Positions 3,427-51,573 of a DNA stretch of 64,000 nucleotides are shown here, one piece after another. The notes under the pieces are model-generated. The model saw only the letters and a program-made list of their open reading frames with translations, was not told the DNA's origin and did not search any database. The position numbers were made by a program, and so were the translations under genes. The DNA lies in contig JAKIWI010000004.1 in assembly GCA_022750115.1 (NCBI GenBank), positions 97,939 to 161,938 of the forward strand, given 5' to 3'. This DNA is from Thermoplasmata archaeon. Its GTDB lineage: Archaea; Thermoplasmatota; Thermoplasmata; Lutacidiplasmatales; UBA184. The stretch's first letter is position 1. The number at the start of each line of letters is the position of its first letter.

Positions 3427-4216
3427 GCGAGCGATCCCGCGCGGCCGAGGCCCGGCTCCAGAGCTGGTCGAACTCGTCCGCGAGCTCGGTCCAGCTGCCG
3501 ACGCTCGGGTATCGGACCTTCGGGATCGGTGCGAGAGGTTCGGTGAGCCTGAGGCGCGGCCGGCCCGTGAACCGCAGGAACGCGACGCCGGCCCGATCGG
3601 CGGCGACCAAGTCGGCCGGACTGTCGCCGATGTGCAGGAGCTCCGACGGGTGGACGCCGAGGCGTTCCGCGGCCCGGCGGATCGGGCCCGGGCTCGGCTT
3701 CGCGTCGGGACCGTCCGAAGAGATCACGACCGCGTCGAAGACTCGCCGCTCCCCGAGCCGCCGGAGCAGGGCGTGGGCTGCCTCGGGAGGTTCGTAGAGG
3801 ATGTTCGAGACCACGCCCAGACGAAGCCCCCGCCGACGGAGTCGCGCGAGTGCCGGTCGCAGGCCGGGGCTCCATCGAAGGCTCGCCGAGGCCAGTGCGA
3901 AGGCGATCGCGTGCCCGACCCGGTCCGGGGCCGGCCGAACTCCGACGAGCCGCTCGAGTTCGTCCGCCTGTTCGGCGAGCGAGACGGAGTGGCCCCTCGC
4001 CTCCCGGCGGCCCGCCCACTCCTCCATCGCTCGAACGTCCGACTCGGCCGCCCGTCGCGAGAGTCCGTGGGCGACGAGCGGGTCGATCCAGGCCGAGCGC
4101 CGGGCCCGCTCGTAGTTCCGCGGCCCGGCGCGGCTGAACGCGATGAGCGTGTGCCACAGGTCGATCGTCACGGCGCGGGGGACGAGACGCCCCCGGTCGG
4201 CCCGTTCGGGCCTCAC
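3290..4216 (-). CDS. HAD-superfamily hydrolase (phosphatase-like)
   Basis: 'VTIDLWHTL' motif I close to the N-terminus, 'VVSNIL', 'HIGDSPADLVAADRAGV' motif IV. GTG start at 4214-4216 overlaps the TGA of the upstream GT4 gene (GTGA). The listed ORF start at 4327 is read-through. Confidence 0.65.
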   Translation of the reverse strand: MRPERADRGRLVPRAVTIDLWHTLIAFSRAGPRNYERARRSAWIDPLVAHGLSRRAAESDVRAMEEWAGRREARGHSVSLAEQADELERLVGVRPAPDRVGHAIAFALASASLRWSPGLRPALARLRRRGLRLGVVSNILYEPPEAAHALLRRLGERRVFDAVVISSDGPDAKPSPGPIRRAAERLGVHPSELLHIGDSPADLVAADRAGVAFLRFTGRPRLRLTEPLAPIPKVRYPSVGSWTELADEFDQLWSRASAARDRSLRRGRSGPARPGPRAAVRAGESRPATPIAPRSRPTGRRRARRPRG

Positions 4217-5460
4217 GGCCCCGGCACCCCAAATTTCCGCCGCCGGCGGACCGGCCGCCGTTCGTAGAGCTCCACGGTGCGCTGGAAGATCTCCTTGAGG
4301 CGCGGGGCCGCGCGGTCCACGTGGCACCGGCGGGCGGTGATCGCCCCGTTCGCTCCAATCCGCTCCGCCTCGGGCGCTCGATCCAGGAGACGGGTGAGTT
4401 TCTGGGCGATGTCGGCCGTGGATCCGGGGCGCGTCAAGTAGCCGTTGACCCCGTCATCGACGAGCTCGGCCGCGCCCGCGCCGCGGCTGACGACCACGGG
4501 GACGCCATGGGTCCACGCCTCGACGATGACCAGCCCAAACCCCTCCCACGGGGCGGGGTGAACGAACGCGTCGGCGAGCCCGTACGTCGCCCGGAGCTCC
4601 TCATCCGAGAGCGCGCCCGCGAACACCACGCGCGACCCGAGCCGGTGCGCCCGGACGCGCGCCTCGAGCTTCGCCCGCCACGAGCTCGCCTTCCGTCCGC
4701 CGAGGCCGGAGGAGCTCGTCGAGAAGCTCTCGCCGCCGACGAGCACCAGCTTCGCCCTCGGGAATCGCCGCGCGACGCGCGCGAACGCGTCGATGGCGAG
4801 GTCCTGGCGCTTCACCGGGTCCATCCGGCCGACCGCGAGGACGACGGGCCCCTCGCCCAGCTTGAGGCGCTCTTGCACGCGGGAGCGCGCGGCCGCCGAT
4901 GCCGCGCGCTGCTCCCTCGGGTCGAAGTACGGGTAGACCTGGAATGCGCGGCCCTGGAAGCCCGCCTGGATCAGGTCCTCCAGCCCGGCCCGCGTGCTGA
5001 CGACGATCCCGTCGAACCCCTCCATCGCCTTCAGGAAAAACCGGCGGACCGGCTCCGGGTAGCCCCGGAAGTCGAGCGGGATGTGCCACCGGAGCAACGC
5101 GGGGGCGGCTGAGCCGATCAGGCCGCCGACGAGGACCTGCTGGAAATCGTTCACGTAGAGGAGGTCGTGGTCCGCGACGTGCGGCAGGAGCGCGAGCGCC
5201 GCGCGCGAGGAGTAGTGGACGAACCCGGGGTAGTCGGCGAGCGACGGCCGGAACCCCCGCGGGCCGTGGAACGAGCGCCAGATCGCCTCCTTGAACCGGG
5301 CGTAGCGGACCCGGGTATCGTCGGGGAGCTGGAACGTCTCGAGTGTGTAGCCCTCGTTCGTCCGCACCATCGGGGGCAGCTCTCCGCCTCCGAGAGCGAC
5401 CCACGTCGTCTCGCCGGTCAACCCGGCGGCGGGGCCGGAGTGGATCAGCGCCCGCATCAT
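4213..5460 (-). CDS. GT4-family (GT-B fold) retaining glycosyltransferase, TreT / sucrose-phosphate-synthase-like
   Basis: 'DLLYVNDFQ', 'AKLVLVGG', 'EGFGLVIVEAWTHGVPVVVSRGAGAAELVDDGVNGYL' GT4 C-terminal signature. Start placed at ATG-ATG (5460); an in-frame GTG at ~5589 preceded by GAGG is an alternative. The first ~190 aa of the listed 610-aa ORF are low-complexity read-through. Confidence 0.75.
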   Translation of the reverse strand: MMRALIHSGPAAGLTGETTWVALGGGELPPMVRTNEGYTLETFQLPDDTRVRYARFKEAIWRSFHGPRGFRPSLADYPGFVHYSSRAALALLPHVADHDLLYVNDFQQVLVGGLIGSAAPALLRWHIPLDFRGYPEPVRRFFLKAMEGFDGIVVSTRAGLEDLIQAGFQGRAFQVYPYFDPREQRAASAAARSRVQERLKLGEGPVVLAVGRMDPVKRQDLAIDAFARVARRFPRAKLVLVGGESFSTSSSGLGGRKASSWRAKLEARVRAHRLGSRVVFAGALSDEELRATYGLADAFVHPAPWEGFGLVIVEAWTHGVPVVVSRGAGAAELVDDGVNGYLTRPGSTADIAQKLTRLLDRAPEAERIGANGAITARRCHVDRAAPRLKEIFQRTVELYERRPVRRRRKFGVPGP

Positions 5461-7676: not shown

Positions 7677-10448
7677 CTACGAGCAACCGCTCGTCGAGCC
7701 GCAGACGGTGCAGGCGTAACACGTCCCCGAGCGGACCATGATGCCGCCGCAGATGTGGCACGACGGCGCGTCGTCGCTCACGCCGCCCGGCGAAGCCGGG
7801 GCGAACATGTCGAGCGACTTGGCCGCGAACGTCTGCGACTTGGCGGGGGCGGCGCCGCTGCCATGGCCGCTGGAACCGCCGTTCCCCTCGACCGGAGCCT
7901 CGAGGCCGATGGCGCGCCGCTCGTCCTCGGTGAGGAACTCGTTCGCGAGCCAGCGCGCCACGTAGTCGGGGATCGACTTCGCGAACCGGATCTTCGGGTT
8001 GTTGGTCGCGCCCTGCGGCTCGAACCGCAGGTGGGCGAGCTTGCGGACGAGATCCTTCAGGGGCACCCCGTGCTGGAGCGCCATCGACATCGAGATCCCG
8101 AGGGAATCCATCAGGCCGTTCACCGTCGAACCCTCCTTCGTCACCCGGAAGAACACCTCGCCCGGGCGCCCGTCGGGGTAGAGGCCGACCGTGACGTAGC
8201 CGTCGTGGCCGCCGACCTGGAAGTGGTGCGTGATCGCCTTGCGCTCGTCGGGCAGGCGCTCGCGGGCGGGGCCGCGCGGACCGACGGGCGCCGTCCGTCC
8301 CTTTCCGGTCTCGTAGGGTTGCGAGGCCTTGCAGCCGTCGCGGTAGAGGGCGACCGACTTGATCCCGAGCTTCCACGCCTCGAGGTAGATCGTCTCGATG
8401 TCCTCGACGCTCGCGTCGTTCGGGAGGTTGATCGTCTTCGACGCGCCGCCCGAGAGGAACGGCTGGACCGCGCCGAGCATCTTCAGGTGCCCCATCGGCG
8501 GGATCGTCCGGGTGCCCCCGGCGGGCGCCAGCGCGCAGTCGAACACGGTGAGGTGCTCCGGCTTCAGGTCCGCGGCGCCCTCGATCGTCCCGCTCGCCGC
8601 GATGTGGGCGGTGATCCGGCCGATCGCGTCCTTCGAGTAGCCGAGGGCGTGCAGACCCTCCGCAACGGTGCCGTTGACCATCTTCATCGCGCCGCCCCCG
8701 ACGAGGTTCTTCACCTTCACGAGCGACAGCTCGGGCTCGAGACCGAGGGTGTCGCAACCCATCAGGAGCCCGATCGTGCCGGTCGGGGCGATGACGGAGA
8801 TCTGGGCGTTTCGGTAGCCCCACATCTCGCCGGAGCGGACCGTCTCGCGCCAGGACTCGCCGCCCGCCTTCACGAGCTCGGCGAGCCGGAGGTCGGAGCT
8901 CTGGATCTTGTCCGCGGCCGCGCGGTGCTTCTCCATCACACGGAGCATCGGGCTGCGGTTGCGGTCGAACCCCGCGAACGGGCCCATTCGTCGGGAGATC
9001 TCGGCGGACATTCGGTATCCCTCGGCGGAGAGGACGGCGGAGACCGAGGCGGCGAGCGCGCGGCCCGGGTCGGAGTCGTAGGCGAGGCCGTACTGCATGA
9101 TCAGCGAGCCCAGGTTTGCGTAGCCGAGCCCGAGGGGCCGGAAGTCGTGCGAGTTCTGCGCGATCGTCGCCGTCGGGTAGCTCGACGCGTCGACGAGGAT
9201 CTCCATCGCGAGGATCATCGCCCGCACGGAGTCGCGGAACAGCGGGAGGTCGAACGACCCGTCGCTCGCGAGGAACTTCATCAGGTTGATCGACGCGAGG
9301 TTGCACGCGGTGTCGTCGAGGAACAGGTACTCCGAGCACGGGTTCGAGGCGTTGATCCGCCCGGCCATCGGTGAGGTGTGCCAATCGTTCGTGATGTCGT
9401 CGTACTGGACGCCTGGGTCGCCACACCGCCACGCAGCGTAGGCGAGCTTGCGCCACAACTCGCGCGCCTTGAGGGTCGCCGCGACGGAGTGGTCGGTCCG
9501 GTTGTAAGTCTTCCAGTCGCCGTCCTTCACGACGGCGTCGATGAACGCGTCGGGGATTCGGACCGAGTGGTTCGCGTTCTGGTAGGAGATCGAGGCGTAG
9601 GCGGAGTCGGGGTCGGTGCCGTCGAAGTTGGACGAGTAGCCCTCGCGGATCAGCGCGAGCGCCTTCTCCTCCTCCTTCACCTTGCAGTCGATGAAGTCGA
9701 CGATGTCGGGATGGTCGAGGTTGAGGATGACCATCTTCGCCGCGCGGCGCGTCGTGCCGCCCGATTTGATCACGCCGGCGAGCGCGTCGAACGCCCGCAT
9801 GAACGACACTGGGCCGCTCGCGATGCCGCCGCCGCTGAGGCGCTCGTGGCTCCCCCGCAGCGAGGAGAGGTTCGAGCCCGTGCCGCTGCCGCCCTTGAAC
9901 AGGCGTCCTTCGCTCCCGGCGAGGGCGAGGATCGAGTCCATGTCGTCGGTGACGGACTGGATGAAGCACGCCGAGCATTGCGGCGGTTGCCGAACGCCGA
10001 CGTTGAACCAGACGGGGCTGTTGAACGCCGCCATCCGGTGGACCATCAGGTAGGAGAGGCTCTCCTCGAGGCGCGTCGCCTCCTCCGCCGTGTCGAAATA
10101 GCCGAGCTCGAGGCCCCGCTGGGCGATCCAGTGGGTGACGCGCCGGATCATTCCCTCGACGGAGTCCTCGCGACGGCCCTGGATGACGCGGAAGTACTTC
10201 GACGCCGCGATGTTGATCGAGGTGTCCGACCAGCTCGTCGGGGCGCGGATGCCGCGCTGCTCGAAGATCGTTTTCCCGTCGGCGGCGCGGATCACCGCGT
10301 CGTGACTCTTCCACTCGACGGTGTCGAACGCCGTCTTCCCGCGCGGGACGAGCCGCGGGATCGCGATCGGGTCGCGTCCGGTGCGGGTCGTCGGTCGGGC
10401 GAGCGCTTCCTCGGGCATGGTGGGGGCACGTCGCTTCGGAATTGCCAT
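7677..10448 (-). CDS. nrdJ: ribonucleotide reductase, class II (adenosylcobalamin-dependent)
   Basis: 923 aa class II RNR; C-terminal Zn-ribbon 'CHICGGIMVRSGTCYACTVCGSTSGC'. Confidence 0.85.
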   Translation of the reverse strand: MAIPKRRAPTMPEEALARPTTRTGRDPIAIPRLVPRGKTAFDTVEWKSHDAVIRAADGKTIFEQRGIRAPTSWSDTSINIAASKYFRVIQGRREDSVEGMIRRVTHWIAQRGLELGYFDTAEEATRLEESLSYLMVHRMAAFNSPVWFNVGVRQPPQCSACFIQSVTDDMDSILALAGSEGRLFKGGSGTGSNLSSLRGSHERLSGGGIASGPVSFMRAFDALAGVIKSGGTTRRAAKMVILNLDHPDIVDFIDCKVKEEEKALALIREGYSSNFDGTDPDSAYASISYQNANHSVRIPDAFIDAVVKDGDWKTYNRTDHSVAATLKARELWRKLAYAAWRCGDPGVQYDDITNDWHTSPMAGRINASNPCSEYLFLDDTACNLASINLMKFLASDGSFDLPLFRDSVRAMILAMEILVDASSYPTATIAQNSHDFRPLGLGYANLGSLIMQYGLAYDSDPGRALAASVSAVLSAEGYRMSAEISRRMGPFAGFDRNRSPMLRVMEKHRAAADKIQSSDLRLAELVKAGGESWRETVRSGEMWGYRNAQISVIAPTGTIGLLMGCDTLGLEPELSLVKVKNLVGGGAMKMVNGTVAEGLHALGYSKDAIGRITAHIAASGTIEGAADLKPEHLTVFDCALAPAGGTRTIPPMGHLKMLGAVQPFLSGGASKTINLPNDASVEDIETIYLEAWKLGIKSVALYRDGCKASQPYETGKGRTAPVGPRGPARERLPDERKAITHHFQVGGHDGYVTVGLYPDGRPGEVFFRVTKEGSTVNGLMDSLGISMSMALQHGVPLKDLVRKLAHLRFEPQGATNNPKIRFAKSIPDYVARWLANEFLTEDERRAIGLEAPVEGNGGSSGHGSGAAPAKSQTFAAKSLDMFAPASPGGVSDDAPSCHICGGIMVRSGTCYACTVCGSTSGCS

Positions 10449-10637: not shown

Positions 10638-10652
10638 CGGTAGAGGCCCGCC
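10638..10652 (-). promoter_or_regulatory. TATA-like box upstream of nrdJ (about 190 nt before the ATG)
   Basis: Minus strand reads 'gtgTAAATAGGgcgg'; lies just inside or after the 3' end of the small Zn-ribbon gene. Confidence 0.35.
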
Positions 10653-10656
10653 CTAT

Positions 10657-10839
10657 TTACACACTCGGTCGAACCCGAGCACGAACCGACGTTTCGGCGG
10701 CGTCGATCGGCAGAACGCGCATCGTGCAGGGCATTGTCACGCCGCACTCCCCGCAGAACAGCCCGTCCTCGGCGACCCAGAGGAACTCGCCGCACCGGTC
10801 GCACTTCCGCGGGTCGTCGGAGTCGTTGCGGCAGCCCAT
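10657..10839 (-). CDS. small zinc-ribbon protein (60 aa)
   Basis: ATG start; 'CDRCGEF...x15...CGECG' C4 motif; immediately upstream of nrdJ. Confidence 0.5.
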   Translation of the reverse strand: MGCRNDSDDPRKCDRCGEFLWVAEDGLFCGECGVTMPCTMRVLPIDAAETSVRARVRPSV

Positions 10840-10957
10840 CGAGCTCCCGAGCGAGGCGAGGTACTTGATTCTCGGGATGGAGACGCAGAAAACGAGGGAC
10901 TTGGGCCGAACCCCTCCGAAGAGGGGTTCGGGAAATGGTAGACGAAGGGTCGCCGGT

Positions 10958-11173
10958 TCAGGCGTTCTTCATCCGGGCGCGGGAAACGTACCCCTTCTTG
11001 TCGAGGAAGTACATGTACCCGTCCTCCCGAGTGACCTTCTCGGTCCCAACCTTCGCCTTCTTCCCCGACTTGTTCAACTTCGTGGGGGTTTTCCAAAGGT
11101 ACCCGTCCTTGCCGAGGTAGTACAGGTAACCCTTCTCGCGCTTGATCTGCTCCTTGCCGACTTTCTCCGCCAT
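10958..11173 (-). CDS. small lysine-rich protein with internal duplication (71 aa), candidate nucleic-acid-binding protein
   Basis: Two copies of the motif G-Y-[LM]-Y-[YF]-L-x-K-x-G-Y ('KGYLYYLGKDGYLW', 'DGYMYFLDKKGYVS'); 13 Lys of 71 aa; AT-rich islet; TATA-like box ~30 bp upstream of the second ATG (11173). Confidence 0.5.
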   Translation of the reverse strand: MAEKVGKEQIKREKGYLYYLGKDGYLWKTPTKLNKSGKKAKVGTEKVTREDGYMYFLDKKGYVSRARMKNA

Positions 11174-11230
11174 GTGAGGCGACCTCGTCGGCGACATGGA
11201 AAGCGCTCCTATTTGAATGTAGGGTCCGAC

Positions 11231-17209: not shown

Positions 17210-17224
17210 CTTCGTGTTAAATAG
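17210..17224 (+). promoter_or_regulatory. TATA box of the atpK-E-C operon
   Basis: 'gtgTTAAATAGGgg' ~35 bp upstream of the atpK ATG. Confidence 0.45.
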
Positions 17225-17255
17225 GGGTCGTTTTTGCGCGCCCCGGGACATCCAC

Positions 17256-25918: not shown

Positions 25919-25933
25919 GCCTATTTAACGGCT
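25919..25933 (-). promoter_or_regulatory. TATA box/BRE of the atpF-A-B-D-H-I operon
   Basis: Minus strand reads 'gccgTTAAATAGgcc' ~28 bp upstream of the atpF ATG (25897), consistent with a leaderless transcript. Confidence 0.5.
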
Positions 25934-50875: not shown

Positions 50876-51027
50876 TTAAATAGGGGGCCCGAATCGAGAA
50901 CCTTCGTAGGAACCCGTAGCCCCGACTCCGTTGAGCTCGCCCGTCTGATTCTTCTGACGCGTGTGGACTTGATTGGGCCGACGGCTCTGGATTCCCACAA
51001 ACGCAGAACGCGAAAGAGAGGAACGCC

Positions 51028-51573
51028 ATGGAGAAGACCCTGACCAAAGTGAGAGACCTGACCCCGAGCTCGAAGCAAGTGAACGTCCACGCGAAGGTCG
51101 TGAATGTCGGCGACGCCAAGGAGGTCATGGGCAAGTACGGTGACCCCCGAAAGGTGGCGGAAGCCGTCATCGGCGACGACAGCGCGACGATCACGCTCTC
51201 GCTCTGGAACGAGCAGATCGGCTCGATCGCCAAGGACGACATCATCCTGATCGACAACGGCTACGTGTCCCTCGTGCGCGGCCACATGCGCCTGAACGTC
51301 GGGCGCTACGGGAACCTGACGAAGTCGACCGACCCGATCGGGGAGGTCAACAGCGCGCTCGACATGAGCCAGCAGGAGTTCGAGTCGGAGCGGCGGTCCT
51401 ACGGTGGCGGCGGATACCGCGACCGGCAGGGCGGCGGCTACGGCAGCGGTGGCGGCGGCGGCGGCAGCTCCCGGTACGGGGGCGGCGGCGGCGGCAGCGG
51501 TGGCGGCGGCGGTGGGGGCGGCGGCGGTGGCGGCGGTGGCCGCGAGCGCTCCGAGACCTACAAGCGCTACTAG
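51028..51573 (+). CDS. ssb: single-stranded DNA-binding protein (single-OB, crenarchaeal-type) with Gly-rich tail
   Basis: 'VNVHAKVVNV...AVIGDDSATITLSLWNEQIGSI...IDNGYVSLVRGHMRLNVG' OB fold, then 'GGGYRDRQGGGYGSGGGGGG...' flexible tail. Confidence 0.75.
   Translation: MEKTLTKVRDLTPSSKQVNVHAKVVNVGDAKEVMGKYGDPRKVAEAVIGDDSATITLSLWNEQIGSIAKDDIILIDNGYVSLVRGHMRLNVGRYGNLTKSTDPIGEVNSALDMSQQEFESERRSYGGGGYRDRQGGGYGSGGGGGGSSRYGGGGGGSGGGGGGGGGGGGGGRERSETYKRY
51400..51545 (+). repeat. (GGC/GGT)n trinucleotide microsatellite encoding the poly-Gly tail of SSB
   Basis: 'ggcggcggcggcagcggtggcggcggcggtgggggcggcggcggtggcggcggtggc' runs directly visible in the sequence. Confidence 0.8.

Follow-up and report, generated by a model that had tools for sequence, protein, structure and literature searches.

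The Sul7d (Sso7d/Sac7d) and Cren7 proteins of Crenarchaeota are monomeric, have a pI of about 10 and form a class of abundant, non-specific DNA binders that kink dsDNA. No chromatin protein is agreed on for Thermoplasmata other than the Thermoplasmatales, and archaeal sets of nucleoid-associated proteins (NAPs) are known to be incomplete. In the Diaforarchaea, histones and Alba were lost at the root, HTa is confined to the Thermoplasmatales and MC1 to MG-II (PMC7613761). The NAP repertoire is reported to be subject to turnover, through the loss of genes and through their horizontal transfer, and single-gene organisation served Hocher et al. (2022) as a criterion for NAPs (PMC7613761). One candidate NAP, from Methanomassiliicoccales (WP_019177984.1 / AGI86273.1), has 70-74 aa, is Lys-rich with a pI of 9.6-9.9, is encoded as a single-gene unit and was assigned a 'novel fold' without structural hits (PMC7613761). 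The proteomic data on it are an abundance of 1.34 % of the proteome and a weak enrichment in the nucleoid.

Here we describe a small gene found in a 64-kb stretch of Thermoplasmata DNA, the whole of which is called the window below. Lutacidiplasmatales have been described with about 69 % GC and 2.1 Mb, a description that the window fits (PMC9287336). The product of the small gene belongs to an uncharacterised family of small basic, putative nucleic-acid-binding proteins that has no structural relative in the PDB.

The small gene, its transcription signals and its base composition

The segment at 10935-11230 of the window contains one ORF, on the minus strand, and its 71-aa translation is exactly the sequence quoted in the preliminary description. 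Translation starts at the second ATG. A 79-aa alternative would begin at the ATG at 11197 (minus strand) and is possible in this window only. We consider the 71-aa start to be correct, because 71 aa is the product length at each of the 79 related Thermoplasmata loci, most of which lack the upstream ATG. The features of the locus are the following:

10958..11173, minus strand: coding sequence of the 71-aa two-repeat basic beta protein, stop codon included (ORF and translation, conservation in 79/79 loci, homologues, AlphaFold2 pLDDT 91.5)
11208..11217, minus strand: TATA-box-like element TTCAAATAGG, 34 nt upstream of the ATG
11182..11186, minus strand: GAGGT, a putative Shine-Dalgarno-like or 5′-leader element, 9-13 nt before the ATG
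10906..10931, minus strand: GC-rich 3′ stem-loop CCGAACCCCTC-TTCG-GAGGGGTTCGG, 27 nt past the stop codon, with an 11-bp stem in the MFE structure
10886..10894, minus strand: T-run CGTTTTCTG after the hairpin, a terminator-like site and likely transcription stop

Fifteen of the 71 residues are Lys (21 %, and not 18 % as counted before) and the net charge is +11. This charge, together with an all-beta AlphaFold2 model, agrees with the earlier characterisation as a basic, Tyr/Lys-rich beta protein. Within the 64-kb window we found neither a second copy of the gene nor, with approximate NAP query sequences, any known NAP gene. A non-coding RNA or tRNA origin of the AT-rich islet was rejected after Rfam and ARAGORN scans of the window, which gave no match. 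A defence or phage function of the small protein was rejected as well: PADLOC (defence) returned nothing, and PHROGs gave only weak matches to families of unknown function. The small gene is a real, self-contained gene.

The TATA-like CAAATAGG that had been noticed near the second ATG is indeed present on the minus strand, at 11208-11215 within the element listed above. An element of the [TC][CT]AAATAG type occurs at -44..-39 in 74 of 78 related loci, and GAGGTCGCC just 5′ of the ATG is kept among the related loci listed. On the 3′ side, 77 of 79 related loci have an equivalent hairpin (-12 kcal/mol or stronger). Its sequence takes 71 distinct forms, so that structure rather than sequence is conserved here. 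A run of at least four T lies within 30 nt of the hairpin in 59/79 loci. Despite a gap of only about 57 nt to the upstream amidohydrolase gene, the small gene thus has the marks of an independent, well-defined mRNA, as judged from these sequence elements. We take it to be a stand-alone, probably strongly expressed transcription unit. Its codon bias shows nothing obvious beyond the genome norm.

The promoter motif recurs elsewhere in the window. We counted five copies of YWAATAGG where 0.27 are expected, and all five lie upstream of, and co-oriented with, a gene: those for RNR, the small protein, the putative AtpK and AtpF, and SSB. At the class II RNR gene (7677-10448, minus strand), the promoter-like motif TAAATAGG (10652-10659, minus strand) is located 203 nt upstream of the ATG, and this distance therefore implies either a long 5′ leader or a mis-set start codon; Rfam detected no riboswitch between the motif and the RNR start. 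Two further copies, at 17218-17225 (plus strand) and 25920-25927 (minus strand), precede two small ORFs by 30 and 22 nt, respectively. By eye these ORFs resemble subunits K and F of the A-type ATPase. Distances of 30 and 22 nt suggest that the transcripts have a short leader or none, and that the element can serve as promoter consensus in this organism. The remaining copy (50877-50884) is found 143 nt before the ATG of an SSB-like gene (51028-51573, plus strand), in a region that also holds the second-lowest-GC stretch of the window. The SSB-like protein has 181 aa, with a single OB-fold (Pfam Ssb-like_OB, E 3e-14) and a long Gly-rich, RGG-like tail.

As the preliminary description had pointed out, the islet is richer in AT than its surroundings, and its GC fraction of 0.556 makes it the lowest-GC 250-nt stretch in the whole 64 kb (mean 0.695, sd 0.034). 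A horizontal origin had been offered as one explanation of this compositional break. The comparison of codon usage with the flanks, run as GC3 and expected GC, gave no foreign signal: GC3 of the small gene is 0.889 against a mean of 0.879 for the long coding ORFs of the window, and the GC of its coding sequence is 0.569 against 0.563 expected from amino-acid composition and local codon usage. Because GC3 matches that of the neighbours and the expected GC equals the observed one, we attribute the dip to amino-acid composition and not to foreign DNA. It is a direct consequence of encoding a Lys/Tyr/Glu/Thr-rich protein in a 69.5 % GC genome. If the islet marked a chance ORF or a gene acquired recently from a foreign source, its position as GC minimum would fit, as would the patchiness of the family at deep level and its copies on mobile elements (see below). 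Besides the codon data, however, the gene order around the islet is kept across related loci and hundreds of homologues are under strong purifying selection, which makes such an origin extremely improbable.

Distribution and genomic neighbourhoods of the family

An identical protein is encoded in assembly GCA_022750235.1, and the best 80 genome loci all come from soil or peat Thermoplasmata, including Candidatus Lutacidiplasma. The presence of homologues in related genomes, which had been left in question, is borne out by 80 species-level Thermoplasmata genomes. In these Lutacidiplasmatales-type genomes, whose loci were ranked by similarity to the small protein itself, identity of the small protein is 84.5-94.4 % (median 91.5 %), compared to 82 % for the RNR N-terminus, 74 % for the Zn-ribbon neighbour and 63 % for the amidohydrolase in the same loci. 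On this ranking, the small protein is more conserved than the nearby RNR.

The initial homology search returned 222 proteins, nearly all of 71 aa and with identities from 92 % down to about 60 %, from Thermoplasmata, Methanomicrobiales/Methanolinea, Micrarchaeia, Marsarchaeota and Gugararchaeum. Between Thermoplasmata, Methanomicrobiales, Micrarchaeota and Marsarchaeota, identity within the family is 60-69 %. In cluster look-ups all members were annotated as hypothetical proteins and all came from MAGs or metagenomes. A profile search of 1.84 billion representatives gave 579 matches and a profile of divergent members more than 7,186 clusters, extending the range to Woesearchaeota, Anstonellales, Asgardarchaeia, Marinimicrobia, Omnitrophica, Endomicrobium and Bdellovibrionota. 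Many of the Marinimicrobia members have 74-75 aa. Between the Marinimicrobia-type subfamily and the archaeal one, homology is clear (hhalign probability 99.8 %, E 4.8e-28). Members of the family occur in hundreds of species of uncultured archaea and in several phyla of bacteria. Its positive charge is a constant feature: the net charge of 352 small members has a median of +11 and reaches at least +5 in 97 % of them, and many DPANN and bacterial members carry extra poly-K/R tails.

No Pfam domain is recorded among the 120 close relatives listed, and the Pfam and NCBIfam copies used lack the family. A hit to PF27482.1 is recorded for two divergent relatives only (P0320 and P0349), and we found no mention of the accession PF27482 in the literature.

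Five viral contigs and one small-ORF-dense element carry a copy of the family, which suggests that it is carried by mobile elements. Divergent homologues with 40-60 % identity (L098-L100, gene at 4001-4222, and L102, gene at 5001-5228) are located in two mobile settings. In one, tiny ORFs are packed into an element that also has DUF5131 and a DNA methylase; the other consists of viral contigs from IMG/VR, among them one of 69.5 kb.

In the window and in Lutacidiplasmatales-type genomes, the gene order is amidohydrolase, small gene, a 60-aa Zn-ribbon ORF and class II RNR. In 60 of the 64 loci with a Zn-ribbon gene, this gene lies on the same strand as the small gene and no more than 600 nt downstream of it. 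In the window, this CxxC...CxxC ORF (10657-10839, minus strand) is located between the small gene and the RNR gene and has a median identity of 74 %. Its Pfam matches are generic and below the cut-off, and an own CAAATAG-like element is often present.

Outside this group the partners differ. Clustering over about 90 loci gave lineage-specific partners only, and a universal conserved neighbour was therefore rejected. In Micrarchaeia, Gugararchaeum, Marinimicrobia and others the small gene stands alone. In one group of Methanolinea it adjoins a histone gene, but this holds for 3/73 Methanolinea-type loci only, and histone adjacency was ruled out as a conserved link. In the Woesearchaeota loci L110-L113 (gene at 4001-4279), the homologue is convergent with an RNR gene at a distance of 22 nt; this echoes the RNR gene two genes off in the window and could be due to chance. 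In four loci, L187 among them, the other strand encodes an HtpX-like protein at a distance of about 630 nt from the small gene. The association of the small gene with this type of M48 peptidase may reflect a functional link or a coincidence.

Two lineages place the gene next to translation genes. In three assemblies of Marsarchaeota it lies inside a ribosomal-protein operon, with a gap of 41 nt to uL2 on its upstream side and of 9 nt to uS19 on its downstream side. In an AT-rich archaeal lineage it is found directly 5′ of eS6 (PF01092, E 1.9e-41) in eight loci (L145, L131, L135, L148, L159, L161, L173 and L191). The full order in L145 (2501-4369) is a wHTH gene on the minus strand, the small gene, eS6 and eIF2-gamma. 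As the eS6 proteins of these loci are only 49-71 % identical to each other, we consider the adjacency to be old.

Both contexts argue for an RNA- or ribosome-associated role, in which the protein would act as an accessory ribosomal protein that varies between lineages, as a factor bound to the ribosome or as a general chaperone of RNA, binding rRNA or other RNA via its basic and aromatic surface. Its size, charge and extreme conservation are typical of ribosomal proteins, and one JGI member is auto-annotated as 'predicted RNA-binding protein'. On the other hand, about two of 20 distinct contexts are translation-related, while most members stand alone with unrelated neighbours, and in the eS6 loci a T-rich stretch parts the small gene from eS6. 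Patchiness in archaea and bacteria and the viral or mobile copies would also be uncommon among ribosomal proteins. With the family profile, solved ribosomes gave no matching chain at E <= 10, which weighs little as none of the structures found comes from a gene-bearing lineage, and Pfam and NCBIfam gave no match to a ribosomal-protein family. We regard a role on the ribosome or on RNA as possible but, on balance, rather unlikely.

Internal repeat and predicted fold

Two copies of the repeat motif reported in the preliminary description are present in the 71-aa protein, GYLYYLGKDGY at residues 15-25 and GYMYFLDKKGY at residues 52-62. The family alignment was split into its N- and C-terminal halves, and hhalign matched the two profiles over 31 columns with a probability of 99.1 % and an E of 1.7e-18. 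A likeness by chance can therefore be dismissed, and the internal duplication is real. According to the models, the protein would be a compact, six-stranded all-beta protein built of two homologous repeats of about 36 residues. In each, an aromatic hairpin, GY[LM]Y[YF]L-x-K-x-GY, comes after a short strand.

AlphaFold2 with the family alignment gave a pLDDT of 91.5 and a pTM of 0.72, an ordered and confident model in answer to the earlier concern that the chain might be disordered. On a second, divergent subfamily the values were 93.3 and 0.79, with predicted strands at 3-6, 16-20, 26-30, 39-45, 55-59 and 65-69. In both models the six strands form two three-stranded repeats and helices are absent.

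The Sul7d/Cren7-like SH3 fold that had been proposed for the protein found no support. Neither Sul7d, Cren7 nor SH3 was among the matches listed in any sequence or fold search. A Pfam scan at E <= 10 returned DUF5050 alone, with Sul7d (7kD_DNA_binding) and Cren7 absent, and PDB sequence and profile searches gave no Sul7d chain. Foldseek found nothing significant in the PDB (best E 0.26, TM about 0.3) or in BFVD (best E 0.11). The family profile searched against all PDB chains gave only spurious matches (E at least 0.3); one of the PDB matches, 9erw_E, was discarded because the chain is a nanobody. No DNA-binding family was found for the small protein in Pfam or NCBIfam, and no known nucleic-acid-binding domain or fold was detected with Pfam, NCBIfam, the PDB profile search or Foldseek against the PDB.

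The weak fold matches that were obtained are to beta-propeller blades. The match to DUF5050, a domain of unknown function, has an E of 0.01 and 15.5 bits against a cut-off of 27. The designed propeller Cake6 reaches an E of 4e-4 only when repeated stretches are summed, each alone having an i-Evalue of at least 66. We would describe the predicted fold as an autonomous domain that is made of two propeller-blade-like repeats and has no solved relative. The domain behaves as monomer-sized, and we call it autonomous because it recurs as a unit in larger proteins. Tandem-domain relatives have linkers of about 10 to about 90 residues, which are sometimes Pro-rich, and then a Zn-ribbon. In P0121-P0124 this terminal Zn-ribbon is similar to the 60-aa neighbour ORF of the window. 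P0144 carries several two-repeat copies on the predicted cytoplasmic tail of a membrane protein, and in P0142, P0229 and P0241 the two-repeat domain is N-terminal to a single transmembrane helix. P0167 (411 aa) is an M48 (HtpX-like) peptidase with a C-terminal two-repeat domain. Should two propeller-blade-like repeats indeed stand on their own as a pair in this fold, that would be informative about the origin of repeat proteins.

From these observations the protein could also be read as an adaptor derived from propeller blades, which may self-associate into a ring or higher oligomer and would bind a non-nucleic-acid ligand, such as a partner protein, the head group of an acidic lipid or a polymer of the cell envelope. 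The likeness to PQQ-like and other propeller blades is weak but consistent in the Cake and DUF5050 matches, one member is auto-annotated as 'BamB' by JGI, and the module does occur in membrane proteins and in an M48 peptidase. However, the repeat has three strands and is not a four-stranded blade, and the propeller matches are individually insignificant for each repeat. The long and at times Pro-rich linkers suggest independent beads rather than a closed ring, and the universal strong positive charge with its K/R tails suits nucleic acid better. We therefore judge binding of a protein, membrane or other polyanion as the main role of the family to be distinctly improbable.

Probable nucleic-acid binding and comparison with known systems

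The tiny size, extreme conservation, obligatory positive charge and self-contained transcription unit lead us to consider the protein a housekeeping binder of a polyanion, most plausibly nucleic acid. The most economical reading of the sequence data is that it probably binds nucleic acid at high abundance. The Lys-rich linker and termini, with conserved surface Tyr/Trp, would most likely contact nucleic acid without sequence specificity, and the role would be that of an architectural or chaperone-type protein. In the Thermoplasmata lineage it may act as a nucleoid-associated protein on DNA. We favour DNA here because, according to the literature, the clade lost histones and Alba at its root and lacks HTa and MC1, so that the place of such a protein is vacant. 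An abundant, non-specific nucleic-acid-binding protein that in this lineage favours DNA and is nucleoid-associated is the reading that we prefer and a real possibility, if still somewhat short of probable. High expression, nucleic-acid binding and DNA rather than RNA as the ligand are each points that we infer. The functional guess of the preliminary description is, in this respect, reasonable but unproven.

Several observations are consistent with a role in chromatin. The gene forms a single-gene unit, marked by a conserved TATA-like element before it and by a hairpin plus T-run on its 3′ side, the family is patchy and mobile in its distribution, its domain is fused to Zn-ribbons, and in one Methanolinea group the gene is adjacent to a histone gene. 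Against such a role stand the two independent translation-gene contexts and the occurrence of the domain on cytoplasmic tails of membrane proteins and on an M48 peptidase, which fits a general binding module. The operational criteria of Hocher et al. (2022) for NAPs are small size (< 290 aa), a single-gene operon, a DNA-binding domain that is known or predicted, and high abundance with enrichment in the nucleoid. With 71 aa the protein is well within this size, and its gene is a single-gene operon except in Marsarchaeota, where it is part of the ribosomal-protein operon. Pfam and NCBIfam showed no DNA-binding domain; the conserved positive charge alone points to DNA.

Where a core component is missing, a small basic protein that is more conserved than RNR and lacks structural relatives is an obvious choice as candidate. 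The family might represent a new, widespread class of small, basic and abundant binders of nucleic acid with its own fold of two three-stranded, propeller-blade-like repeats, either as the principal chromatin protein of Thermoplasmata that lack histones, Alba, HTa and MC1, or as a new accessory ribosomal protein of archaea and some bacteria. We put this forward tentatively, as a rather doubtful prospect.

Compared to small accessory ribosomal proteins, the family is similar in size, charge and conservation and shares the genomic contexts of uL2-uS19 (Marsarchaeota) and eS6. Unlike them, it is patchy across domains, mostly stand-alone and without a match to a ribosomal family or chain. Beta-propeller repeats (PQQ-like/BamB-type, the Cake and Pizza designs, and oligomerising fragments such as RSL) differ in that the small protein has only two three-stranded repeats; all scores are sub-threshold and ring closure is not seen. 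Four-stranded blades closing into a ring of four or more do not appear in the models, and typical propellers are not highly basic, whereas the small-protein family is.

The Methanomassiliicoccales candidate NAP (WP_019177984.1 / AGI86273.1) resembles the family in every descriptor, as compared by description only, and its host order is reported to be sister to that of the window genome. Methanomassiliicoccales, Sphingomonadales and Rhodobacterales, the taxa reported for the candidate family of Hocher et al., are not named among the 360 homology matches listed, and matching of isoelectric points to this candidate gave no equal value among the proteins compared. Identity of the two families is a lead and not a finding.

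The Sul7d and Cren7 proteins are SH3-like five-stranded barrels, Sul7d with a C-terminal helix, whereas the small protein consists of two homologous three-stranded repeats without a helix, and a sequence or structural relationship is absent. The taxonomic range is also different, with the small-protein family found in Thermoplasmata, Methanomicrobiales, DPANN, Marsarchaeota and some bacteria. Sul7d and Cren7 are nevertheless likewise small (59-64 aa), Lys-rich, all- or mostly-beta proteins encoded in single-gene units, and by analogy the small protein may work like this class.
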